Positions 21,894-40,113 of a stretch of 64,000 nucleotides of DNA are shown here, in pieces (within the stretch, counting starts at the first letter, position 1; every line of letters begins with the position of its first letter). Source of the DNA: Parcubacteria group bacterium (GTDB taxonomy: Bacteria > Patescibacteriota > Patescibacteriia > Patescibacteriales > GWC2-42-12); NCBI GenBank assembly GCA_016188785.1, contig JACPHD010000001.1:26300-90299 (forward strand), in the 5' to 3' direction. Position numbers and translations under genes: made by a program. The notes under the pieces were generated by a model. The model saw nothing but the letters and a program-made list of their open reading frames with translations, was not told where the DNA came from and did not search any database.

Positions 21894-22892
21894 TTAAAGG
21901 CAAGGCGAATATGATAATGATTTAATATAATTTTCCATAAATTCAAAATTAGGCTCGCCTTTTTTATTCACAGGCAAAAAGATTTTTTCTTGCATAATCC
22001 TTGTTCGCGATCTTTTTCTGCCAAAACTATATCTAAACGTTTGCATGTTTAATATTGAAGTAAAAAATAAGGCAATATATTTATTTAGAATAAAATTTAT
22101 TGGTTCTAAAATATTTGGATCACCCGAGGAGCTAAATCTATTTTCTTGATAAAAAGCTTTTCCATCTGTAGCGCCGTCAATCGTGATAACATTTCCATTT
22201 TCAACATACTTGTCAGAAGTACAAACAACCCCATTATTTTTATTGCTGGCTGTTATATATAAATACTCGCCAGAACAAATTTCATCCCTAGTAAAACTTT
22301 TTTTTGTTTTTCTTACATTAAATAATTTTGACAAATCAAATTCTTTAAATTCATTCTTTTTTAGTTTTAAAGCTTTATTTTTAATGATTTTACTATCATA
22401 TCTTATTTCTTTAGATAAACCTTTAATATAATTTTCCATAAATTCCCAATCAGGTAATTTATTTTTGGTAGCCGGAAGCAGTATTTTTTCTTTTTTTAAT
22501 CTCTCATTATTTATTTCTCTGGCAAAATTATATTTGCTTTTCATTGATTCAATGATTGGCTTAAGAAATAATGAAATATAATTATTTAATTTTATTTTTT
22601 TGTCTTTAATTTTAATTACTGTGCAATGGTCAGAGGCAACAAACTTGTAAGGGTGATAAAAACAATAACCAACGCTCCCGCTATTATTTAGTGTTAGTGC
22701 ATTCTTATATATCTTCATAAAACTCGGAGGAAGTATATAATTATCAACCCCATTATTTTTTTTGCTTGAAGAAATATACGATATATCACCCATAACTTGA
22801 TCTATTTTTACTAATCTCTTTCCCCGTGATATGGTAAAAACTTTAGCAAAATTAAATTCTTGCCAATTATTTTTATTAATCTTCATAATCAT
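21894..22892 (-). CDS. Specificity (S) subunit, HsdS/BcgIB-like with two TRD+CR halves
   Basis: Internal duplication: 'K(I/L)(F/L)LP..K...P(N/D)(F/W)EFMENYIK(S/G)LS' occurs twice. Confidence 0.6.
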   Translation of the reverse strand: MIMKINKNNWQEFNFAKVFTISRGKRLVKIDQVMGDISYISSSKKNNGVDNYILPPSFMKIYKNALTLNNSGSVGYCFYHPYKFVASDHCTVIKIKDKKIKLNNYISLFLKPIIESMKSKYNFAREINNERLKKEKILLPATKNKLPDWEFMENYIKGLSKEIRYDSKIIKNKALKLKKNEFKEFDLSKLFNVRKTKKSFTRDEICSGEYLYITASNKNNGVVCTSDKYVENGNVITIDGATDGKAFYQENRFSSSGDPNILEPINFILNKYIALFFTSILNMQTFRYSFGRKRSRTRIMQEKIFLPVNKKGEPNFEFMENYIKSLSYSPCL

Positions 22893-23295
22893 CGCCGTTA
22901 TTATTTAAAATTTCAGCCGCCCTAATATTATTCTCATTAAGAATTTCTAGTAATGTAATTTCATCAATATCCTTATCTAGCAAATCTAATTTTAGTTTTG
23001 TAGAGAAAATAACATACTCTTTAATGCTTTTTTCAAAAGTCTTTTCTGATAAATTATCATAATTTGTTTTTGCATGTGCTTGAATTATCCACTCGTCATT
23101 TCCTATTATTTCTTTATAGACTAAATTTATAAAATCTTCGTTTTCTTTTGGACGGTTAAGTTTTTTTAATAAATCTTTTTTTATACCATTCCATTTGTCT
23201 AAAACATCTGTTCTTCCTTTATTTTTAGATAAAACAAGACCATCATTTTTTAAATCATAAAAGACAACTTTGTTGTTATTATGAGGTTTATTTGT
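22876..23295 (-). pseudogene. Met-less 140-codon ORF, in-frame continuation of the upstream RM gene after a TAA
   Basis: Translation after the TAA at 23296-23298 reads TNKPHNNNKVVFYDLKNDGL...NNGDDYED with no stop until it overlaps the S-subunit start. Confidence 0.5.
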
Positions 23296-24858
23296 TTAAA
23301 AAACTGCTATGGCGGTATGCGTTGAGGCATTTGGTTGAAATAACTCAATCGGCATATTAATAACATATTTTAATGTGTGTTTTGATAAAATTCTATTTCT
23401 ATCAATATCATCTTTAAAATATGTGGAGAGCGGGGCAATTATAACCCCGTATCTACTAGAATTATCTAGCATCTTTTCTAAAAATTGAATTTCTTTTTTA
23501 GTGGGATTTTTTTTATTATCTTTACCGCCATACGGAGGATTTACAAATCCTATTGTAGGTTTATTCGGTAACTTATTTAAAATATTGTTTGTTTCATTTG
23601 AGAAAAAATCTTCATTAAAAATTTGAGATTTTCCATCTCCCCTAAAAAGCATGTTAGAAATCGCCAATGAATACATTGTACTACTTTTTTCAAGTCCAAT
23701 CAGTTGTTTGGTTTTTATATTTTTAATTCTTTCTTTTTTATCTGATAAATTTGATTTTTCAATTTCATCAACAAGTTTATTCATTCCCGCGATTAAAAAC
23801 GCCCCCGTTCCGCAAGCCGGATCAAAAATTACATCGTTTGTCTTAATATCAATTAATTCTGTAAATAAAGTAGTGATATGATTTGGAGTTAATATAATTC
23901 CTTTTTTTACACTTGTTATCCCCGCGTATCTTAAAAATTCTTCATAAAATTTTCCTATTATATCGTATGAAGTTTTTTTATCAAAAAGAGGTATTACTTT
24001 TTCTTCAAGTTCTTTTAAAATATCTTTTAAAATATTTGTGGAATTTAAATCATTATCAGTTTTTATAAAAGTTAATTCATTGGTTAATACCTCTATCTTA
24101 TTTTTATCAATTTTCTCACTTTCTAAAATATCGCTTATGGTCGTAGGCATATTTCTAATAATTGTTTGGGTATTCCATAAACTATAACTATTTTTAAAAT
24201 CTGACCCGCTATCTTTTGGGTATAGACAAATCATTAAAGCGCTTAAAAGCACCGGTCTTTTTTGAGAATCTAAGTTTCTTAACAACCTATTGATTTCGCT
24301 TGATGATTTTGAAATATCATTAGATATTTTTTCTAAATCAATGTTCTCAAAAAAAGCTAAATAATCTTCTTCGTCTAAAATTTCACTCTTACTAATATTT
24401 TGAATAAAGTTATTTTCAATAATATAAGTATCAAGTCTATGATTATATTCATCATTAATATCTCCAGAAAAAGCAATTCCTACTATTTTCCAATTTTTTA
24501 AATATTTTTTTATTGTTTCTTTTTCTTGACTTAATTTTTCGCTTGTGAAAAAAGATAAATAATGTTTTATTCCGTCAACGGCAAAATCCACAGGATCATC
24601 TTCATTTTTAGAAACATGGTTTTTTATTTGATCTTTATTTTCAATTAAAATCAATAATTTTTTTATTTCATTTACATAAATCAAATCCGGATAACCATGT
24701 TTTCCAGTTTCTTTTTTGCTTGTTTTATCTAAAATTTCTTGAATATATTTATTATTTTGTTTCTGGACATTCCAGCTATTAGTATACCGCCTATTCTCTT
24801 TAATAAAATTAAATAGATTAATATCTGTTTTTGCTTCGTTTTTTCTCAAATTTGCCAT
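23296..24858 (-). CDS. Type IIB/IIG (BcgI-A-like) restriction-modification subunit: N-terminal PD-(D/E)xK nuclease plus gamma-class N6-adenine MTase
   Basis: 'YPDLIYVNEIKKLLILIENKD' (PD...ENK). MTase motif I 'FDPACGTGAFLIAG', motif IV 'NPPYGG'. Confidence 0.7.
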   Translation of the reverse strand: MANLRKNEAKTDINLFNFIKENRRYTNSWNVQKQNNKYIQEILDKTSKKETGKHGYPDLIYVNEIKKLLILIENKDQIKNHVSKNEDDPVDFAVDGIKHYLSFFTSEKLSQEKETIKKYLKNWKIVGIAFSGDINDEYNHRLDTYIIENNFIQNISKSEILDEEDYLAFFENIDLEKISNDISKSSSEINRLLRNLDSQKRPVLLSALMICLYPKDSGSDFKNSYSLWNTQTIIRNMPTTISDILESEKIDKNKIEVLTNELTFIKTDNDLNSTNILKDILKELEEKVIPLFDKKTSYDIIGKFYEEFLRYAGITSVKKGIILTPNHITTLFTELIDIKTNDVIFDPACGTGAFLIAGMNKLVDEIEKSNLSDKKERIKNIKTKQLIGLEKSSTMYSLAISNMLFRGDGKSQIFNEDFFSNETNNILNKLPNKPTIGFVNPPYGGKDNKKNPTKKEIQFLEKMLDNSSRYGVIIAPLSTYFKDDIDRNRILSKHTLKYVINMPIELFQPNASTHTAIAVF

Positions 24859-24945
24859 ATCGTTTTATTGATATAAACTAGGATTATTTAAAGCTCTCTA
24901 TAATTATAGCGTAATTTAGCTTAAAATAAAAATTAGAATCAAAGT

Positions 24946-25560
24946 TTAAGCGAATTTTCTAATCACTCCCCTGACCACTCCCTGAATTAGCGGGTCGGCC
25001 GCGTAAATCGGCTTCATGGCTGAATTAGCCGGCTGCAGTCTGATGCGCGCCTGCTCGCGGTAAAATTTTTTCAAAGTGGCATAAGCATTGTTTAAAAGCG
25101 CTACCACCACATCGCCGTTTTGCGGCGACGGATTGCGCTCCACGATTACATAATCGCCGTCTAAAATTCCGTCTTCAATCATTGATTCGCCTTTAACTTT
25201 TAAAACGTAACTATTGGCGCTGTCGGTTACGAAATCAGCCGGCACGGCGATCGTGTCTTGTTCTTCAACCGCTTCGATCGGTTCGCCGGCTGTTATCAGG
25301 CCGACTAACGGCAATTCTAAACTGGCGGTCCAATTCACGGCCGTGGGAATAATTTCAATTGAGCGCGCTTGATTAAACGAAGTTTTTAGCATCTGCTTTT
25401 TCTCCAAAGTTTGCACATGCGCGTGAATCGTGGCCGGACTGGCTAAATTAAAATGCCGGCCGATTTCTCTTAAGCTGGGCGCGTAGCCGTTATCGCGCGT
25501 AAATTCAGTTATAAAATCCAGAATTTGCCTTTGTCTTTTGGTTAAATTGTTGCCCATATA
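24946..25560 (-). CDS. lexA: LexA repressor (HTH plus S24 peptidase)
   Basis: 'ITAG' cleavage site, Ser in 'KGESM', Lys in 'ATLKK'. Start taken at MGNNLTKRQRQIL. Confidence 0.85.
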   Translation of the reverse strand, partial: YMGNNLTKRQRQILDFITEFTRDNGYAPSLREIGRHFNLASPATIHAHVQTLEKKQMLKTSFNQARSIEIIPTAVNWTASLELPLVGLITAGEPIEAVEEQDTIAVPADFVTDSANSYVLKVKGESMIEDGILDGDYVIVERNPSPQNGDVVVALLNNAYATLKKFYREQARIRLQPANSAMKPIYAADPLIQGVVRGVIRKFA

Positions 25561-25597
25561 GTTTATGTTAAAAATTAGTTTTCCACAATACTCTTTT

Positions 25598-25626
25598 ATC
25601 ATACACGAACAAAATACGAAAGTCAA
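25598..25626 (-). promoter_or_regulatory. lexA promoter: TTGACT-N17-TATGAT with direct repeat TTCGTA-N5-GTTCGTG in the spacer (putative operator)
   Basis: Read on the minus strand: TTGACT TTCGTATTTTGTTCGTG TATGAT. Confidence 0.55.
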
Positions 25627-28573: not shown

Positions 28574-29128
28574 TTATAATGGTAATTTTAAAACAATAAA
28601 TTCCTCTAAGTCATCTTTTATTAATAATCGTGATAACGATGATACTTTCTGCAATGAATAGCAAGGATTATGAGAAAATCCTATATATTCCACATTTTTA
28701 TTTAAATGTTTTACTTTTTTTATCGCTGGGTTTAAATCAGAATCAGATGAAATAATTATAGCCGTATCCCAGATATCGTCATACGCCCCAACCAATAAAT
28801 CAACTGCCAATTTAACATCAACGCCTTTTTCATGATAACCGCCACTGTTAAATAAAAAATTTCCTTTCTTAATAACAAATCCTTGCGCTGTTAAATTATT
28901 AAATAACCTTAACTGATTGGCTCGAAGATTTTGGCCTTTTTGATCGTTGTCTTTAGCTCTAATGGCCCCGACATAATAGCGGCAGGAAATAATTTCCCTG
29001 CCCCTGGCAAGTTTTTTACATAGCCCGACATAACTAAAATTAATAGTGTTAGTAATTTGTAGTTCCTTTAGTTTATGATATAAATTACTGCCATCAATAA
29101 AAACGGCCACTCTTTCATTTATTAACAT
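28574..29128 (-). CDS. NYN-domain (LabA-like) RNase
   Basis: 'VAVFIDGSNLY', 'KGVDVKLAVDLL', 'DTAIIISSDSDL'. Confidence 0.8.
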   Translation of the reverse strand: MLINERVAVFIDGSNLYHKLKELQITNTINFSYVGLCKKLARGREIISCRYYVGAIRAKDNDQKGQNLRANQLRLFNNLTAQGFVIKKGNFLFNSGGYHEKGVDVKLAVDLLVGAYDDIWDTAIIISSDSDLNPAIKKVKHLNKNVEYIGFSHNPCYSLQKVSSLSRLLIKDDLEEFIVLKLPL

Positions 29129-29333
29129 AATATCAAAAACCCACCGTGCCCCCGAAGGGAGCAGAGTGGGTGATTTTAGCTAAATAAAGGAATTTCATCC
29201 ATTTTTCTGCGATACTTCCATGCGATACTTCCAATAGGGTAATACTACTTTAAAAAATTTCACTTGTCAAGACTTATCCACAGATAATATCTATTATAGC
29301 ATAAATTTTTATGATAACGAAATTCAGACATAT

Positions 29334-31840: not shown

Positions 31841-32212
31841 TTAATTCCTCTCTGTGGCTAATTTAACATCAATACCTTTAGCTAAAATATTTTGATAATC
31901 TTTAAAGCGATCGTCAACTTTAACAGTTTCTGTTCTGGTTCTAAGCTTACTGGTTTTAATAGTCCAACCGTAACTTTCCAGGGTGTTAAATAAATATGTT
32001 TGATTTGACATTGCCTTGGTGGTTTCATGATTACCGCCCCTTTCTCTAACGGTCCCAATGTAAAATCTTTTGCCTGGATATGCCAATTCTCTAACGCCAA
32101 TTAAAAATTTAGCGAATTCATCATAATTAAAATCACTATCATGACAACCAATCCGTTTTAATGCGAGATTATAAAAATTACCGCCGTCAATAAATATTTG
32201 TACTTTGTCCAT
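31841..32212 (-). CDS. NYN-domain protein, probably C-terminally truncated
   Basis: 'VQIFIDGGNFY', 'KGIDVKLAT' then a stop. An SDxxxxxPVDDLKK-like continuation is in another frame. Confidence 0.6.
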   Translation of the reverse strand: MDKVQIFIDGGNFYNLALKRIGCHDSDFNYDEFAKFLIGVRELAYPGKRFYIGTVRERGGNHETTKAMSNQTYLFNTLESYGWTIKTSKLRTRTETVKVDDRFKDYQNILAKGIDVKLATERN

Positions 32213-32315: not shown

Positions 32316-33660
32316 CGGCGCGTGTCAATGGTTTGCACTCGTCCATGTCATACTTAACACCAGGGAGTGCAAAATATGTTAAACCATAGTAATATCTGTA
32401 GATTTGGCCATTTAAGCCAAACTAAAGCTACAGATATTATGCAAACACAAGCTGAAATAAAATTAAACCCTTTGCGGTGTTATCTTTCGCCGGAGGCGAA
32501 AAAAAGATTAAAATGGATGTATCTTGTAAAATACGAATGTGCCAATAATATTTCGCAGGCGGCCAACCGCCTCGGCATTTCTCGCGTCTGGCTGTCTCAA
32601 ATTCACAGCCGCTGGCAGAAACATCGCGAAGACCCCAGGAGTCTGGAGCCGGAGTCAAAAGCGCCGCATGACACGAGCAACCGTAAACGGATTGATGAAA
32701 AAGTTGAAAATAAAATTGTTGAAATCAGAAAAAAATACCAGCCCTGGGGCAAAGACAAATTATCGGTCATTTTAAAAAGGGATTATCAATTAATGGCCGG
32801 AGCCTCCACCGTCAATCGCTATCTCGTAAAACATAACCTGATTGATCCGAAACTATCCGAGAAAAATAAACTGGCCTGGCAGAGAAAAAAAGAAAAGGCA
32901 AATCTGAAATTTAAAATGAGGCCGCCGGCGGTAATCAAAGATTACAAACCCGGGGCGCTCTTAGAAAAAGACATGAAATTAGTCCTGAAAATGGGTATAT
33001 TCACTAACATGAATAAGCATCGCGCTAAAGAAAACTTCTGGTATCAGCATACCTTAATTGATTCTTTTACCCGCGTCAGAGCCGTTGGTTTAGCCGAGGA
33101 TTCTAACAGCCAAACAGCGGTAGCGGTTCAGGAGCAGGCGGTAAGCCGCCTGCCCTTCGCCATCGCGGCGATAAACAACGACAACGGCGGTGAGAATGAA
33201 AAAGATTTCTCTGTTTATCTGGAAAAAGAAAAAGTGGCTCAATTTTTTTCCCGCGCCGGCACGCCGACAGATAACCCGCGTGTTGAACGCTCTCATCTAA
33301 CGGACGAACTGGAATTTTACGCCCAAGGCAATCTGCATAAAAATTTTAACGATCAGGCTAAGGCAATATCAGAATGGGAACACACTTACAATTTCGTCCG
33401 GCCGCATCAGGCTCTCGGCTATCTAACACCCATGGAATTTTACAGGCTCTGGCAGAAAAACCCCGAAGAGGCCCATCGGATTAAAAATAAATACAGCGCT
33501 TATCTTAAAAAACAAAGTCGTCGTTTGGCTAAATCCAGACAAATGAAAAACAAGGAACAAATTGAAAATCTAATGAAATTTATTGATAAAAAATTGTCAA
33601 AATCTAATTCTTAAAAGTGTTAATTATGTTCGTGGACTTGAACATGTTATCAATGTTAAA
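32316..33660 (+). mobile_element. IS481-like insertion sequence (approximate ends, imperfect TIRs)
   Basis: Left end 'TGTCAATGG...CATACTTAACAC' versus right end 'GTGTTAATTATG...CATTGATAACA' gives partial inverted identity. Higher GC than the flanks. Confidence 0.45.
32367..33614 (+). CDS. DDE transposase (rve integrase core, IS481-like) with N-terminal HTH
   Basis: 'ISQAANRLGISRVWL' HTH. rve core '...NDNGGENEKDF...', 'RPHQALGYLTPMEFY'. Confidence 0.8.
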   Translation: MQNMLNHSNICRFGHLSQTKATDIMQTQAEIKLNPLRCYLSPEAKKRLKWMYLVKYECANNISQAANRLGISRVWLSQIHSRWQKHREDPRSLEPESKAPHDTSNRKRIDEKVENKIVEIRKKYQPWGKDKLSVILKRDYQLMAGASTVNRYLVKHNLIDPKLSEKNKLAWQRKKEKANLKFKMRPPAVIKDYKPGALLEKDMKLVLKMGIFTNMNKHRAKENFWYQHTLIDSFTRVRAVGLAEDSNSQTAVAVQEQAVSRLPFAIAAINNDNGGENEKDFSVYLEKEKVAQFFSRAGTPTDNPRVERSHLTDELEFYAQGNLHKNFNDQAKAISEWEHTYNFVRPHQALGYLTPMEFYRLWQKNPEEAHRIKNKYSAYLKKQSRRLAKSRQMKNKEQIENLMKFIDKKLSKSNS

Positions 33661-33716: not shown

Positions 33717-34286
33717 TTATTTTATCCTGAAAATTTCCTTGATTTTATTAACATTTTCTTTGGCCGCGAAAAAAGCTTCAATAAAAGCTGATTTAGGTAT
33801 CATTCTGCCTTCTAAGGCTTCTCTCTTTTTCGTAAAATCCCAGGCAATTATTGGATCCTGGTATATATAGAATATCACAACCGGCCGCGAATGGTCTAAC
33901 GATCTTTTAACATTTTTATAAGAAACATCATACTTGGAAAACGTCCCATCAACTATCGCCTCTAATTTCTTGGCGAGAATATGGTCATACAGCTTTTCAA
34001 CTCCAATTGAAGAAGCACCTTGGACAACATCAGAATTCTTACCATTATATTGAGGCATAATTTCTTTGATTTCATCGGCGTCGATCCTAACTAATTTCTT
34101 ATCCAATATTTTGGCTAAATTTTTAGAGAATTCGGTCTTGCCCGCCCCCGGCGAACCGGCCATAAAAATAGTAACTGGATTTACAATCGATTTATAAAAA
34201 TCAGGCTTAGCAAATTTTTCAATTAACAACTTTCTATTTTTCTTTATAAATTTTTTTGCTTCTTCCGCTTCTTTAATATTTATCAT
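33717..34286 (-). CDS. Zeta-toxin/AAA_33-like P-loop kinase
   Basis: Walker A 'MAGSPGAGKT'. 189 aa. Confidence 0.55.
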   Translation of the reverse strand: MINIKEAEEAKKFIKKNRKLLIEKFAKPDFYKSIVNPVTIFMAGSPGAGKTEFSKNLAKILDKKLVRIDADEIKEIMPQYNGKNSDVVQGASSIGVEKLYDHILAKKLEAIVDGTFSKYDVSYKNVKRSLDHSRPVVIFYIYQDPIIAWDFTKKREALEGRMIPKSAFIEAFFAAKENVNKIKEIFRIK

Positions 34287-36153: not shown

Positions 36154-36182
36154 TTGACTTCGGTAAATCTTCGGTATATACT
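36154..36182 (+). promoter_or_regulatory. Promoter of the LexA-MTase gene: TTGACT-N17-TATACT with direct repeat CTTCGGTA-N3-CTTCGGTA in the spacer
   Basis: Read directly; same architecture as the lexA promoter at 25598-25626. Confidence 0.6.
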
Positions 36183-36219
36183 ATAAATATAACATGTGGA
36201 TAAATAATGTCAAATAACT

Positions 36220-38712
36220 ATGCCTACTCTAACGAAGAGACAAAAGCAAATTTTAGACTTCATTCGTGAGTATATTAATAAACATAATATATCCCCTACC
36301 TTTGAAGAAATTAAAAAACATTTTAGATTATCTGCGCTATCTACCGTACATCAGCATATTGAAGCATTAATCAAAAAGGAATTTTTAGTAAAAAATAATA
36401 ACTTATCAAGAGGACTCGAGTTAAAAACAAAAGGGGAAGACATAGTTGAAATTCCTTTACTCGGCGTGATTGCTGCTGGTCAACCGATCGAAGTCTTTGA
36501 AGAACACGAGACTATAACCGTTCCGCGCACCAATTTATCTAACGCCGGTGAACATTTCGCATTGAAAGTACAAGGCAATTCCATGATTGATGAAGGAATT
36601 TTTAATGGCGATACTGTAATTATCAGAAAACAAAATACGGCCAGCAACGGAGAAACTATAGTGGCTATAATAAATGGCAATGAAGCGACATTAAAAAAGA
36701 TATATAGATTTCAAAATGGTTTTAGGTTACAACCGGCGAACCCAGAAATGAAACCGATCTTTGTAAAAAGTTTGCTTGTCCAAGGTAAAGTTGTAAGTGT
36801 TATAAGAAACTTTGAAAACAATACTATCATTGAACAAATTTCTAGCAATGAAGAATATATTGTTTCCAAAGAATATTCGGAAAAAGGTATAAATTTAGAT
36901 CAGCTCATAAGTGAGCTGGTAAATTTTAGAGATATTATAATATTTAAATACGGCTTTAATACAGCAGATGATTTTTTAAAAACACAAATTATTGACGGCT
37001 TAATTCTACAAGAAATTTTTAAGCACATCGCAAATAAAAAAAATGTAAATACTAACATCCAAGCAATAAACGAAATACTGAAAGAACTAAACCTAAATCA
37101 TGTAGAATTTACAAAGGATGATATAAAAATTTTTGGGGATATTTTAAAAAAATACAATTTTAGTAGCTGCGATGATGATGTGCTTGGTTTTATATATCAA
37201 AGCATTAGGCCCCAGAGTGGCAGAAAAGATGATGGCCAATATTACACCCCCAAAAAAGTAGTTAAATATATTTTAAATAATGTAAAAATAAATTTAAAAG
37301 AAAACAAAAATTTAAAAATTTTAGACCCAGCCTGTGGATCCGGACAATTTTTGCTGGAAACATACGATATTTTGTATAACCAATACAAAACAATGGGTGA
37401 AAAAAACGAAGCGGACATCCATTACAAAATCATTAATAATCACTTACTTGGCTTTGATATAGATAAAATCGCCGTGAGTTTGGCTAAACTTAATTTATTT
37501 CTAAAATCAAAAGGTACGTATACAGAAAAATTTAATATTTTAATAACAAATACGCTTAAGCGAGATTCTAACTTACTAGAACCAAATCAATTGGACAAAT
37601 ACAAAGGCAGTATTGATTTTGTAGTGGGCAACCCTCCCTGGGGAGCAAATTTAAATGAAGAACAAAAAAAATATTATAAAAAGCATTATGATATAGGAAA
37701 AAATGGATTAAACACATTTACTCTTTTTATTGAACGTGCTTTTGATTTTCTTAAAAAAAATGGAAAATTAGGATACTTAATACCTGAGGCCTATCTAAAA
37801 ATTAAAGTGCACCAACTTTCTCGCCTGCAAATATTAAATAGAGCCAAGATACTACTCCTTGGAATTAGCGGGGATATATTTCAAAAAGTTTACGCTCCTT
37901 GTTTAGTAATAATTTTCCAACAAGAAAAAGATAAAACAGCCAGGGAAAAAAATGAAATAAATATAGAAAATGGAGTTTTCAACGGACATGAAGAACATAA
38001 GACGATAATTCAAAAAAATTTTGAAAAATCCGCTGAAAATATTTTTAACATCAACCAAGTCGGCGAAACTGAAGAAATACTAAACCATATCCTTGAACAA
38101 AAAAATTATTATCTTAAAGATAACGCATTATTTATATTAGGTATCGTAACCGGTAACAATAAAAAGTATCTAATCCGAGAAAAGAAAGACAATAAATATT
38201 CCCCTATTATAGTGGGCAAAGATATAAGCAAATATAAAATCAACTTCAGCGGCAATTATTTTATCTATGACAAAAACATACTCCAGCAAATTGCTCCGAA
38301 AGAATATTATACCGTACCTGAAAAAATTATTTACAAGTTTATTGGAGAAAAAATCACATTTGCTTATGACGATAAACAATATTTTACTTTAAACAATGCT
38401 AATGCATTCGTGCCTAAAATAGAAAAAATAAAAACCAAATATATTTTGGCCTTATTAAATTCAAAATTGATGCAATTTTTTTACAATAAATCTTTTTTTA
38501 CCGTAAGAGTACTCCGTGGCAATTTAGAAAAATTGCCTTTAGTTTACGCGGATCAAAAAAAACAAGAACAAATTATCAGCCTAGTTAATCAAGCAATAAA
38601 TTCAGAAGAAGATAGAATACTAAAAATAATTTTAGACAAAATTGACGACGAGGTATTCTCTCTTTATAAAATATCAAAAAAGTGGCAACAATATATTTGT
38701 AAAGAGACATAA
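36220..38712 (+). CDS. Fusion protein: complete LexA (HTH plus S24 peptidase) fused to a gamma-class N6-adenine DNA methyltransferase with a C-terminal TRD
   Basis: aa 1-200 are LexA-like ('VIAAGQPIE', 'QGNSM', 'ATLKK'), a close paralogue of the lexA at 24946. Then 'LDPACGSGQFLL' (motif I), 'GNPPWG' (motif IV) and ~300 aa TRD. No stop or frameshift between the parts. Confidence 0.8.
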   Translation: MPTLTKRQKQILDFIREYINKHNISPTFEEIKKHFRLSALSTVHQHIEALIKKEFLVKNNNLSRGLELKTKGEDIVEIPLLGVIAAGQPIEVFEEHETITVPRTNLSNAGEHFALKVQGNSMIDEGIFNGDTVIIRKQNTASNGETIVAIINGNEATLKKIYRFQNGFRLQPANPEMKPIFVKSLLVQGKVVSVIRNFENNTIIEQISSNEEYIVSKEYSEKGINLDQLISELVNFRDIIIFKYGFNTADDFLKTQIIDGLILQEIFKHIANKKNVNTNIQAINEILKELNLNHVEFTKDDIKIFGDILKKYNFSSCDDDVLGFIYQSIRPQSGRKDDGQYYTPKKVVKYILNNVKINLKENKNLKILDPACGSGQFLLETYDILYNQYKTMGEKNEADIHYKIINNHLLGFDIDKIAVSLAKLNLFLKSKGTYTEKFNILITNTLKRDSNLLEPNQLDKYKGSIDFVVGNPPWGANLNEEQKKYYKKHYDIGKNGLNTFTLFIERAFDFLKKNGKLGYLIPEAYLKIKVHQLSRLQILNRAKILLLGISGDIFQKVYAPCLVIIFQQEKDKTAREKNEINIENGVFNGHEEHKTIIQKNFEKSAENIFNINQVGETEEILNHILEQKNYYLKDNALFILGIVTGNNKKYLIREKKDNKYSPIIVGKDISKYKINFSGNYFIYDKNILQQIAPKEYYTVPEKIIYKFIGEKITFAYDDKQYFTLNNANAFVPKIEKIKTKYILALLNSKLMQFFYNKSFFTVRVLRGNLEKLPLVYADQKKQEQIISLVNQAINSEEDRILKIILDKIDDEVFSLYKISKKWQQYICKET

Positions 38713-38716
38713 ACGA

Positions 38717-39349
38717 TTAAATAATTGCCGAGAATAAATTTCTTGGTTCGGTAGCAGATTCTTTCATCTGCTCGTAACCTGGGTGCCATTGATAAGTCGC
38801 ATTTGAACCTGTGGTACTGTGCTGTGGAGAAAATTTTGCGCCAAAAATCGGTTTGCCGGCCCTAATATCTCTTTTATTTAAAACCCAATAAAATTTTCCC
38901 TCTGGCGTTATTCCTAAAAAAATATAGTAATTAATCCTTGGGTCTTTTAAACGTATTTGTTCAAAAATAAACTTATTGCCTTGATAAATAGTGGCTGTTT
39001 TAACTTCTATATATTTATTCTTTTTCAATTCTAAAAAATCAGGATTCAATTGATTTTGGTTTCCTCTCTCGAACTTTTTAAGTGCATCTTTACCAGCAAC
39101 ATTCTCGTAATCGGCTCGAAATAAATCCTCTCCGGCACAACCTATTTGGCGTGAACGCAAAAGTTTAAATCGTAAATACAAATCAGCATCCTCAACTTCT
39201 TTGGTTATAGAGATACCTTTTGTCATGGCGAAACCCAAAACAAATTGATAGTTACCTTCATTAATTTTATCTTTCAATAAATCATCCACATCAACGCCTT
39301 TCAGGTGAGCGTCATAAAACCGATTAAATATTTCTTCAATAGTTTTCAT
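38717..39349 (-). CDS. Putative type II restriction endonuclease (PD-(D/E)xK: NPDF...YIEVK)
   Basis: Convergent with the MTase (4-bp gap). Start overlaps the upstream XRE gene (ATGA). Confidence 0.45.
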   Translation of the reverse strand: MKTIEEIFNRFYDAHLKGVDVDDLLKDKINEGNYQFVLGFAMTKGISITKEVEDADLYLRFKLLRSRQIGCAGEDLFRADYENVAGKDALKKFERGNQNQLNPDFLELKKNKYIEVKTATIYQGNKFIFEQIRLKDPRINYYIFLGITPEGKFYWVLNKRDIRAGKPIFGAKFSPQHSTTGSNATYQWHPGYEQMKESATEPRNLFSAII

Positions 39350-39564
39350 AAAAAATAGCTAATTTGTTTTTTATATAAACCCGCAAAATTTTTTAATTCA
39401 ATAATATCTATTCTCTGCTCACCGGCCTCAACTTTAGAAACATAAGACTGAGGTTTTTTTGTTTTTTCCGATACCTCTTTCTGGGTTAAACCCGCATCTA
39501 ATCTGGCCTGTTTAAGGAGTCCTATAACTCGTTGATATTCACTTGTTCGTATTGTTTTAGGCAT
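39346..39564 (-). CDS. XRE-family HTH protein, likely R-M controller (C protein)
   Basis: 72-aa HTH_3-like 'LTQKEVSEKTKKPQSYVSKVE', overlapping the downstream nuclease gene. Confidence 0.6.
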   Translation of the reverse strand: MPKTIRTSEYQRVIGLLKQARLDAGLTQKEVSEKTKKPQSYVSKVEAGEQRIDIIELKNFAGLYKKQISYFL

Positions 39565-39577
39565 TTATATATTATAT

Positions 39578-39607
39578 ATTCAAATCAAGAATATTCAAAG
39601 TTTGAAT
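39578..39607 (-). promoter_or_regulatory. Tandem C-box-like palindromes ATTCAAAGTTTGAAT (perfect) and ATTCAAATCAAGAAT (imperfect) upstream of the C gene
   Basis: Read directly, 14-45 nt upstream of the XRE start codon. Confidence 0.55.
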
Positions 39608-39744
39608 AGTATGATATAATACAACTGGGCATTAAGAAAAGTTTGCTTTTGGCTTAAAATATTCAGTAGATATAATCTGCACTCGCTCGGAAATAAAAAA
39701 AATGAATTTTTTATTTCTCTCGCTCGTTTGATTATAAAATTCGA

Positions 39745-39972
39745 GCCGATATTTTTTACAGGCTCGGCGCCTGTCCCGTTGCATAACGGGAGCAGTTTTT
39801 TAAAGCCGGGCTTTGCCCGCGGGGAAATTTTTACCCCGTTGAATAACTGGGGATTACTTTTAAAAGCGGGGGCGCCTGCCTGCCGGCAGAGGCAGAGGCG
39901 CTTTTAAAAGATAGTTTAAAACCTTTTTTTAAATTCGGTTCGGATTAAATCATACATTGCCAGCCAATTTGG
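39745..39972 (-). repeat. ~200-bp repeat family, copy C (inverted; right flank of the R-M module)
   Basis: The reverse complement matches copy B. Terminal 'CCAGCCAATTTGG' is an inverted copy of the tRNA-Gln 3'-end region 'CCAAATTGGCTGC'. Confidence 0.75.
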
Positions 39973-39988
39973 AATAAGCCTAAAATTT

Positions 39989-40017
39989 AAAGCCAAACCC
40001 CATTCGGGTTTGGCTTT
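39989..40017 (-). terminator. Rho-independent terminator downstream of tRNA-Gln
   Basis: Minus-strand read: AAAGCCAAACCCGAATGGGGTTTGGCTTT followed by a T-run. Confidence 0.6.
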
Positions 40018-40039
40018 AAATTGGGAGCGTTGTCCAAAT

Positions 40040-40113
40040 TGGCTGCGGGACCTGGATTCGAACCAAGATAACATCCTCCAGAGGGATGTGTCCTACCATT
40101 AGACGATCCCGCA
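40040..40113 (-). tRNA. tRNA-Gln (anticodon CUG)
   Basis: Minus-strand sequence TGCGGGATCGTCTAATGGTAGGACACATCCCTCTGGAGGATGTTATCTTGGTTCGAATCCAGGTCCCGCAGCCA. U1-A72, T-loop TTCGAAT, anticodon loop CTCTGGA. 3' half nearly identical to the E. coli tRNA-Gln 3' half. Confidence 0.75.

Follow-up and report, generated by a model that had tools for sequence, protein, structure and literature searches.

Complete LexA modules fused to DNA methyltransferases of predicted type II restriction–modification systems in Patescibacteria

In restriction–modification (R-M) systems, methylation has to stay ahead of restriction, and little is understood about how type II systems recover when it falls behind. Some modification enzymes control their own synthesis. 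According to the review PMC3874152, DNA methyltransferases (MTases) with an N-terminal helix-turn-helix (HTH) domain autorepress, and unbalanced R-M activity induces the SOS response. M.SsoII, M.Ecl18kI, M.EcoRII, M.MspI, and M.ScrFIA carry an N-terminal DNA-binding domain and have an operator that overlaps their own M promoter (PMC3874152). In enzymes of the SsoII/EcoRII type, this domain is a short HTH on a C5 MTase, protease and signal-sensing functions are lacking, and the R gene is usually divergent (PMC3874152). Here we analyze a 64-kb stretch of DNA from a Parcubacteria group bacterium (contig JACPHD010000001.1; hereafter the window) that encodes a LexA–MTase fusion protein. The fusion shares with M.SsoII and its relatives the N-terminal DNA-binding domain and a predicted operator overlapping its own M promoter. 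However, it belongs to a class in which a complete LexA is carried on gamma-class N6-adenine, beta-class N6/N4, D12, or C5 MTases, the R gene is convergent, and an input from DNA damage is implied.

Two other kinds of regulators are instructive for comparison. The LexA proteins of E. coli (1JHH, 3JSO) and T. maritima (3K2Z) have in common with the fusion a winged HTH, an Ala-Gly site, an S24 Ser/Lys dyad, and an operator in their own promoter that provides for negative autoregulation (predicted in the case of the fusion). Whereas LexA is a stand-alone protein of ∼200 amino acids, the fusion has ∼630 amino acids of MTase at its C-terminus and sits on a mobile R-M island. It also does not resemble the stand-alone master of a repair regulon, given that the only cognate operator found in the 64 kb is in its own promoter. 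Controller (C) proteins such as C.PvuII, C.AhdI, and C.Esp1396I are small dedicated regulators within the R-M unit, and the lexA genes of the split operons described below are organized like C genes. In contrast, C proteins, which mainly time R expression, are dimers with an Xre-type HTH and lack a protease domain; their binding sites are palindromic C-boxes, not direct repeats with an 11-bp period.

The fusion gene is a single uninterrupted open reading frame (ORF) of 830 codons (36220..38712, + strand), and its protein begins MPTLTKRQKQILDF. Residues 1–198 match the lexA equivalog model TIGR00498 of NCBIfam with 179.3 bits, well above its cutoff of 110.95, and a sequence search of the PDB aligns them end to end with LexA structures (3K2Z, 3e-33; 1JHH; 3JSO). 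The winged-HTH DNA-binding domain occupies residues 1–65 (36220..36414, +; LexA_DNA_bind, PF01726, 51 bits versus a Pfam cutoff of 23.7), and its recognition helix reads S-T-V-H-Q-H-I. It is followed by the peptidase S24 catalytic and dimerization domain at residues 79–192 (36454..36795, +; PF00717, 102 bits). Alignment with E. coli LexA places the motif VIAAGQ over the autocleavage site, so that the predicted scissile bond is A86-G87 (A84-G85 in E. coli; codons 36475..36480, +). The same alignment places QGNSM over the catalytic serine, S121 (S119; codon 36580-36582, +), and ATLKK over the catalytic lysine, K159 (K156; codon 36694-36696, +). An earlier note on this DNA had quoted these motifs and proposed a complete LexA with a DNA-binding domain, an Ala-Gly site, and a Ser/Lys dyad. 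Pfam, TIGR00498, the PDB matches, and the E. coli-aligned positions all agree with that proposal, and the N-terminus is a LexA rather than a generic HTH, as judged from sequence.

The same frame continues through a linker (residues 198–222; 36811..36885, +) into the N-terminal helical domain of an MTase, and the in-frame fusion to a gamma-class N6-adenine MTase reported in the earlier note is borne out by Pfam. N6_Mtase covers residues 319–606 (catalytic domain, 37174..38037, +; PF02384, PF07669), Eco57I residues 407–544, and TaqI_C residues 662–774 (target-recognition domain, 38203..38541, +; PF12950, 99 bits). Motif I, LDPACGSGQF (368–377; D369-F377 at 37324-37350, +), lies N-terminal of motif IV, NPPW (471–474; 37630-37641, +), and the TaqI_C domain follows both. 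Since motif I comes before motif IV, the enzyme is assigned to the gamma class, and N6-adenine methylation activity is predicted. The protein is classified as MTase_II by PADLOC (4.5e-106), and its C-terminal part matches BsaXI, the bacteriophage exclusion (BREX) protein PglX, and M.TaqI in the PDB, in which no solved chain covers both the LexA and MTase halves. In an AlphaFold2 model of the fusion, with a predicted local distance difference test (pLDDT) score of 73, the LexA and MTase-core domains are confident, and the linker has low confidence (pLDDT <50 at residues 198–211 and 219–222).

Orthologous fusions in other genomes, for which the earlier note had proposed a search, are plentiful. 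An identical protein is present in a Parcubacteria metagenome-assembled genome, and sequence searches of NCBI, JGI, ENA, and Logan assemblies yielded >70 full-length fusions of 803–939 amino acids with 33%–82% identity. All have the same architecture, and none has a stop at the junction. An artificial joining of neighboring lexA and MTase genes by misassembly or a frameshift might be suspected, because in the split lexA/M operons described below the two genes are 10–30 nt apart or overlap by 4 nt, and one indel could therefore fuse them. However, the full-length fusions come from independent assemblies and sources and remain in frame across a linker that varies, and about 70 further fusions, to other MTase families, are found in species-representative genomes as well. 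We therefore reject the artifact, whose probability is negligible, and consider it nearly certain that the fusion is real and widespread.

Both halves of the protein are conserved. In an alignment of 18 gamma-class fusions (34%–82% identity), G87, S121, and K159 of the LexA module are invariant and A85 and A86 are at least 90% conserved. In the same alignment, D369, C372, G373, G375, N471, P472, and P473 of the MTase are invariant. The conservation of the LexA catalytic residues together with the MTase motifs indicates that both halves are under purifying selection. The Ala-Gly pair, the serine, and the lysine are retained in 85 of 85 aligned LexA modules.

The earlier note treated the fusion as singular, but it proves to be one member of a large Patescibacteria class that exists in fused and split forms and spans four MTase families. 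We scanned one genome per GTDB species with the fusion alignment and took the 80 best loci, in which the LexA matches sit almost entirely in long ORFs. Clustering of the C-terminal parts, combined with Pfam, assigns these LexA fusions to N6_N4_Mtase (28), C5 DNA_methylase (24), gamma-class N6_Mtase/Eco57I (8), and two MethyltransfD12 subfamilies (4 each). Record titles of the survey loci are overwhelmingly those of Patescibacteria (Parcubacteria, Saccharibacteria, Moranbacteria, Paceibacterota, and others), with a few bins labeled otherwise. Sources that name the orthologs give them no other name than “transcriptional repressor LexA” or “SOS regulatory protein LexA.” We do not favor a phage origin, as one scan of IMG/VR gave LexA-like and MTase-like genes apart and no fusion.

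No description of a LexA–MTase fusion was found in the open-access and preprint literature searched, which left many subscription papers outside, including Sanchez-Osuna 2017 (Environ Microbiol 19:3465) on the Patescibacteria SOS response. Targeted look-ups in an R-M regulation review and in an SOS-component survey gave none either. What appears to be new is an R-M MTase, predicted to be self-regulating, whose DNA-binding domain is a complete and apparently cleavage-competent LexA.

The region upstream of the gene suggests what the LexA module binds. A predicted M promoter (36154..36182, +) consists of a −35 hexamer TTGACT (36154-36159), a 17-nt spacer, and a −10 hexamer TATACT (36177-36182), with a 10/12 match, and this layout recurs upstream of fusions at other loci. 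A direct repeat with a period of 11, TTCGGTA-aatc-TTCGGTA (36159..36176, +), takes up the spacer, and we predict that this repeat is the operator of the LexA module. Thus, the interval in which the earlier note expected LexA to bind does contain a LexA-type direct repeat inside the promoter. Repeats of the TTC type with an 11-bp period and half-sites identical at 6 or more of 7 positions are present in 60 of 77 upstream regions, compared with a mean of 0.42 and a maximum of 2 after dinucleotide shuffling. In 41 of 57 forward cases, the repeat ends no more than 2 nt from the start of the −10 hexamer or overlaps it. The LexA motif of Patescibacteria is stated to be a direct repeat in PMC7739468, which cites Sanchez-Osuna 2017.

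The variable bases of the half-site change jointly in both copies, and they follow the LexA recognition helix. Modules with the helix H[QE]H have the half-site TTCGG at 35 of 35 loci. Helices HYY, HHY, and NHY go with TTCTA, helices HHH and HYH mostly with TTCGA, and helix HKH with TTCGC. Across 69 loci with TTC-type repeats, the mutual information between helix and operator is 1.49 bits, a value reached by none of 10,000 permutations (mean 0.37, maximum 0.67). The corresponding value for MTase class and operator is 0.29 bits, which 375 of 10,000 permutations reach. This weak association with class, set against the strong association with the helix, led us to reject the idea that the repeat is or contains the target site of the MTase or is set by MTase class. 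Furthermore, one helix–operator pair is found on gamma, C5, N6/N4, and D12 MTases alike. Because the pair recurs across MTase classes, the repeat is best seen as belonging to the cis-encoded LexA module, whose operator it would be, rather than to the MTase. Hence, it is very probable that the repeat is an autoregulatory operator, to which binding is predicted.

A repressor of this kind need not be cleaved to be useful. The LexA module might merely be a dimeric DNA-binding domain, comparable to those of M.SsoII and M.EcoRII, and autocleavage might have no physiological role. The position of the operator inside the promoter spacer and the helix–operator covariation are explained equally well without cleavage, and MTases that are plain autorepressors have been described (PMC3874152). 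However, a role limited to DNA binding would not maintain a cleavage site and a dyad, and both persist in all 85 modules, in fusions with identities down to 33% and in four MTase families. We consider a plain autorepressor rather unlikely for this reason.

A second LexA is encoded in the window. The resident lexA gene (24946-25560, −) scores 191 bits with TIGR00498 and has a host-like GC content of 47%, compared with 34% for the fused module. The earlier note described the two as closely paralogous. The resident gene exists as reported, but because its product and the fused module are only 44% identical, that description overstates their relation. We conclude that the fused LexA arrived with a low-GC island and is not a close paralog of the resident host lexA.

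The host lexA promoter (25606-25620, −) carries a similar repeat, TTCG-N7-TTCG, and the same TGTGGAAAA element, and the S24 domains of the host LexA and the fusion are 44% identical overall. These similarities are what would be expected if the fusion were embedded in the host SOS network. Host LexA could bind the fusion operator, making the MTase gene merely a member of the SOS regulon, or the fusion could bind host SOS boxes or heterodimerize with host LexA and so modulate SOS genes. However, the recognition helices differ (ATIHAHV in host LexA, STVHQHI in the fusion), as do the half-sites (TTCGTAT/TTCGTGT and TTCGGTA, respectively). In addition, no TTCGGTA-type repeat other than that in the fusion's own promoter was found in the 64-kb window, and every locus has its own cognate helix–operator pair. 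Thus, participation in the host network is quite improbable.

The surroundings of the resident lexA gene hold an observation of their own. Starting 87 nt past this gene are foreign genes of 26% GC for an HsdM-like N6_Mtase and a type I S subunit (Methylase_S; region 21894-25626, −), with no R gene visible in this region. The HsdM-like frame has an in-frame TAA at ∼23296-23298 and goes on to 22893, overlapping the start of hsdS. The gene could be a pseudogene, the stop could be a sequencing error, or it could be read through. It appears that an M/S module of foreign origin has inserted immediately behind the resident lexA.

The genes next to the fusion identify the probable restriction partners. 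A putative restriction endonuclease of 210 amino acids is encoded convergently and begins 4 nt past the M stop (38717..39349, −). Because this protein has no usable family in Pfam, NCBIfam, or PADLOC, we relied on structure prediction, which gives a PD-(D/E)xK fold (model pLDDT 67, moderate quality). The start of this R gene is overlapped by a gene for a 72-amino-acid C protein (39346..39564, −; HTH_3, PF01381, 1.5e-11). Such an overlap resembles classical C-protein/R operons, and a homologous arrangement is found at one orthologous locus (L004). These two genes fit the convergent, C-protein-controlled nuclease that the earlier note had described. The 830-amino-acid protein is therefore likely to be the M subunit of a type II R-M system that was acquired horizontally and that also includes the 210-amino-acid putative nuclease and the C protein.

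This arrangement is shared by other members of the class. At all five gamma-class loci examined, a convergent gene for 210–238 amino acids either abuts the 3′ end of the fusion gene or overlaps it. The upstream genes differ between these loci. In the larger set, each MTase class has a convergent abutting gene at most of its loci. Among 70 such neighbors, Pfam matches were to type II restriction endonuclease and nuclease families, namely, MvaI_BcnI (13), RE_Bsp6I (9), PDDEXK_5 (4), BsaWI (2), NgoFVII_C (2), HNH/EndoVII (2–4), AccI, AlwI, and MutH, and also to second MTases. Separately, the gamma-class MTase orthologs, which are 33%–52% identical, pair with three R classes that have no BLAST similarity to one another: 210 amino acids (window and L001); 227–238 amino acids (L004, L005, L008, L090, and L091); and 235–238 amino acids (L006, L007, and L010). 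The pattern points to replacement of the nuclease together with divergence of the domain for target recognition.

A different candidate for the cognate nuclease can be dismissed. The earlier note had named a divergent 505-amino-acid ORF as a PD-ExK candidate, but this gene is absent from all orthologous loci examined. Its GapS1 match is weak (NF047931, 93 bits, below the cutoff of 320), and it has no PADLOC match.

LexA control seems to be specific to M. The predicted promoter of the C/R operon in the window (39571..39598, −) has adjacent palindromic TTCAAA-n-TTTGAA boxes of its own and no LexA-type repeat. A search of the 400 nt ahead of each of 56 convergent R genes found no cognate operator, and about a third of these genes have a small HTH-like ORF instead. 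We therefore discard the idea of a LexA operator ahead of the R gene or C-R operon. The earlier note had suggested that modification, and possibly restriction, is coupled to DNA damage; the part that concerns restriction is not upheld by these findings, whereas coupling of modification is the best-supported reading of the locus and, in our estimation, moderately probable.

The LexA partner does not have to be fused. The closest “free” LexA proteins of ∼198 amino acids, which are 55%–64% identical to the fused module, are themselves linked to MTases in the loci examined (L088 and L089), and the many proteins of this kind speak against a separate, fusion-only clade of LexA modules. Four split loci (L088–L091) were examined, found by way of two ∼198-amino-acid LexA proteins and two MTase-only relatives. 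In all four, a lexA gene for 198–201 amino acids lies directly upstream of the MTase gene, or in L089 in the order lexA-vsr-MTase. In L088, lexA overlaps an N6_Mtase/Eco57I gene by 4 nt and a convergent gene for 267 amino acids is next. In L089 (3001-5957), lexA, vsr, and a C5 DNA methylase gene are followed by a convergent gene for 282 amino acids. The latter locus is thus a LexA-headed C5 R-M unit with its own T:G mismatch repair gene, vsr (very-short-patch repair endonuclease). The promoters of L088 and L089 share the operator grammar of the fusions. The closest MTase-only relatives of the MTase in the window (P0047 and P0054, 45%–48% identity) each have a lexA gene for 200–201 amino acids 10–30 nt upstream and a convergent gene for 234–238 amino acids downstream. 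A more distant MTase relative (P0074) has neither an upstream lexA nor a convergent downstream gene.

Comparison of the two forms indicates how they are related. Residue 208 of the fusion aligns to residue 10 of the separate MTase in L091, which places the split gene boundary near the linker. Between split L090/L091 and fused L004/L005/L008, the R proteins are 47%–53% identical and the MTases 41%–44%, whereas the LexA parts are only 35%–42% identical. One R-M family thus appears to exist both fused and split, and its LexA partner seems to have been exchanged. Since the two forms share an R-M family, the role that they have in common must be to control M at the level of transcription. LexA genes for ∼200 amino acids are also directly followed by the gene for a DpnI-family methyl-directed restriction enzyme in L028 (3998-5377) and by a NOV_C (PD-(D/E)xK-like) protein gene in L025 (3220-4617). 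LexA cassettes may control other defense nucleases too.

The M promoter is faced by another predicted promoter. This reverse promoter (36186..36213, −) has the sequence TTGACA, 16 nt, and a TG-extended TATATT (11/12 match). Its −10 is 3 nt from the −10 of the M promoter, and its −35 is formed by a conserved “GTCAA” located 5–12 nt ahead of the ATG, a position that lacks an evident Shine-Dalgarno sequence. Reverse promoters with a match of at least 11/12 are present in 25 of 78 loci versus 0 of 78 shuffled sequences, and the gap is 3 nt in 17 of 36 strong pairs. Transcription from this promoter would read through the LexA operator toward varied upstream genes, and promoter interference may result. 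Ecl18kI likewise has promoters that face or compete with each other, and in the EcoRI system a reverse promoter likewise faces the M promoter, making mutual inhibition possible (PMC3874152). However, the EcoRI reverse promoters are inside the R coding region and produce a defined antisense RNA (PMC3874152), whereas in the present locus only 3 nt of the M leader separate the two −10 boxes.

A DnaA-box-like element, TGTGGATAA (36195..36203, +), lies in both the 5′ untranslated region and the spacer of the reverse promoter. Elements of the form TGTGGAWAA(C) (reverse complement TTATCCACA) occur at three sites in the 64 kb, namely 36195-36203 (+), 25579-25587 (−), and 29274-29282 (−), a count that is not significant alone because 15 of 100 shuffles reach it. 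All three sites adjoin a promoter with a tandem direct repeat. An element of this type is located within 130 nt upstream of 56 of 77 LexA–MTase genes, versus a shuffle mean of 0.38. It is also present at plain lexA promoters (L025 and L031), and an inverted pair flanks the promoter in L001, L007, and L088. The element, for which DnaA is a candidate binding factor, seems to belong to an ancestral Patescibacteria lexA promoter grammar.

The third of these sites has distinct surroundings. The region 29195-29290 (−) consists of TGTGGATAAG, then TTGACA, 17 nt, and TAGTAT, followed by two perfect tandem copies of GGAAGTATCGCA. This region is ∼70–110 nt upstream of an NYN-domain gene (28574-29128) and could represent a further operator of the repeat type or, alternatively, a small RNA.

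The best model for these features is LexA-type autorepression of M that is relieved by autocleavage stimulated by activated RecA (RecA*), and we judge it to be somewhat more probable than not. The LexA module would dimerize via its S24 domain and bind TTCGGTA-N4-TTCGGTA in the M promoter spacer, so that the MTase would repress its own gene and hold its level constant. DNA damage would create filaments of RecA on single-stranded DNA, and one source of such damage would be the cognate nuclease, which would introduce double-strand breaks whenever methylation falls behind. These filaments would stimulate self-cleavage at A86-G87, the DNA-binding domain would part from the dimerization domain, and repression would be lost. 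The earlier note envisaged that cleavage could detach the repressor/operator-binding module from the MTase. The predicted cleavage site is indeed present, but cleavage would release only the 86-residue DNA-binding domain, and the S24 domain would remain on the MTase.

After cleavage, more MTase would be made, raising methylation just when the cell's own DNA is being cut. Damage-induced derepression of M is the outcome that we regard as the likelier one. In this model, the nuclease operon would not be induced, since it has its own C-protein control and lacks a LexA operator. Transcripts of M would run antisense into the abutting convergent R gene, only 4 nt away, and might lower nuclease expression further; induced M transcription probably also interferes with R. 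The net effect would be an SOS-driven, self-protective restriction-alleviation feedback.

Related logic operates in other systems. In the restriction alleviation of type I systems in E. coli, ClpXP degrades HsdR after DNA damage. The proposed logic is the same in that damage shifts the R/M balance toward protection of unmodified self DNA. However, type I alleviation is proteolysis of the R subunit by a host protease, whereas here we propose transcriptional derepression of M by way of a built-in LexA module in a type II system. CapH/CapP of the cyclic oligonucleotide-based antiphage signaling system (CBASS) and S24-family phage repressors such as lambda CI offer a further parallel, in that a mobile or defense element has its own repressor and proteolytic inactivation of this repressor ties expression to DNA damage. 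However, the CBASS protease, CapP, is a metalloprotease encoded separately, CI is a regulator of lysogeny, and in neither case is the repressor fused to the enzyme it regulates.

Several considerations weigh against autorepression relieved by RecA-stimulated cleavage. Cleavage, DNA binding, and RecA dependence are all predicted from sequence. Shared ancestry among the loci inflates the helix–operator statistics, though pairs recur across unrelated MTase classes, which speaks for genuine specificity. The conserved reverse promoter and the DnaA-box-like element are inputs to the promoter that the model does not explain, and the structural model of the R protein is of only moderate quality. A tblastn search with E. 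coli RecA found no RecA in the 64-kb window, a result that is uninformative for the whole genome, which has a host-type lexA. Finally, ClpXP and Lon degrade the fragments of cleaved LexA in E. coli, so that cleavage of the fused form could lower MTase activity instead of raising it.

This last point leads to an opposite prediction, in which damage would trigger a loss of protection. Autocleavage would expose degrons, the S24–MTase fragment would be degraded, and methylation would fall while a stable nuclease persists. New DNA, whether a phage's or the cell's own, would then be cut in an abortive-infection-like response. The MTase would indeed stay covalently attached to the S24 domain after cleavage, and the N-terminal fragment would have ...GVIAA as its C-terminus, similar to the VAA terminus by which ClpX recognizes the corresponding fragment of E. 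coli LexA. R-M systems are also described as toxin–antitoxin-like addiction modules (PMC3874152), and the island contains a zeta toxin gene and the GapS1-like gene. This degron is only a candidate, however, and derepression would also replenish the MTase. Moreover, where the same R-M family has a separate lexA gene (L090/L091 versus L004/L005/L008), cleavage would only derepress the operon and could not destabilize the MTase. We consider damage-triggered loss of protection unlikely.

The R-M unit lies within an island of 27%–34% GC, compared with 45%–52% for host genes, and a tRNA-Gln (CTG) gene (40040..40113, −) forms the right-hand border of this island. The island also holds the 505-amino-acid ORF, an rve-family transposase/integrase gene (32367-33614, +), and a zeta-toxin kinase gene (33717-34286, −) for which no epsilon antitoxin ORF is obvious among those called. 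A second NYN-like ORF is at 31841-32212. The interval between the C gene and the tRNA-Gln gene (39700-40030) contains a terminator-like hairpin (39774-39791) and several hairpin-like repeats that are rich in GC and have GGCTTTAAA(A) at their ends, such as those at ∼39800-39880 and 39990-40020. The repeats may be island-boundary or att remnants. LexA–MTase units elsewhere are located in defense islands. A SMODS/CBASS-like nucleotidyltransferase gene and a HinfI R-M pair adjoin the unit in L004 (1-5918), SMODS, SLATT, and GmrSD genes are present in L088 (1-2843), and a DpnI gene and a HicA toxin gene are near the unit in L006 (701-1471).

Taken together, these observations permit a broader reading that we hold tentatively, giving it slightly less than an even chance. 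Self-cleaving LexA repressors, either fused to the MTase or encoded upstream of it, would be common dedicated controllers of type II R-M systems in Patescibacteria. The MTase would act as the damage sensor, and breaks from self-restriction would activate RecA, cause cleavage, and produce a burst of MTase. This would be the first hard-wired, SOS-driven restriction-alleviation or autoimmunity feedback described for type II systems, and the TTCGG, TTCTA, TTCGA, and TTCGC helix–operator pairs would be orthogonal. If so, their diversification would let several systems coexist without cross-talk.

The findings also have practical consequences. The fusions offer a natural panel of compact, apparently orthogonal pairs of LexA DNA-binding domains and operators, and the module could serve as a self-cleaving, damage-responsive tag. 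Many database entries named “transcriptional repressor LexA” are actually R-M methyltransferases, and this mislabeling could distort the inference of SOS regulons and motifs in candidate-phyla genomes.

For the organisms themselves, a complete LexA on an MTase would tie R-M homeostasis directly to the universal signal of DNA damage and would broaden restriction alleviation to include type II as well as type I systems. Patescibacteria largely lack CRISPR and are thought to depend heavily on R-M systems for defense. Given this reliance, the presence of LexA on four unrelated MTase families, and the existence of split operons, control of R-M systems by LexA is probably a major regulatory principle in Patescibacteria.

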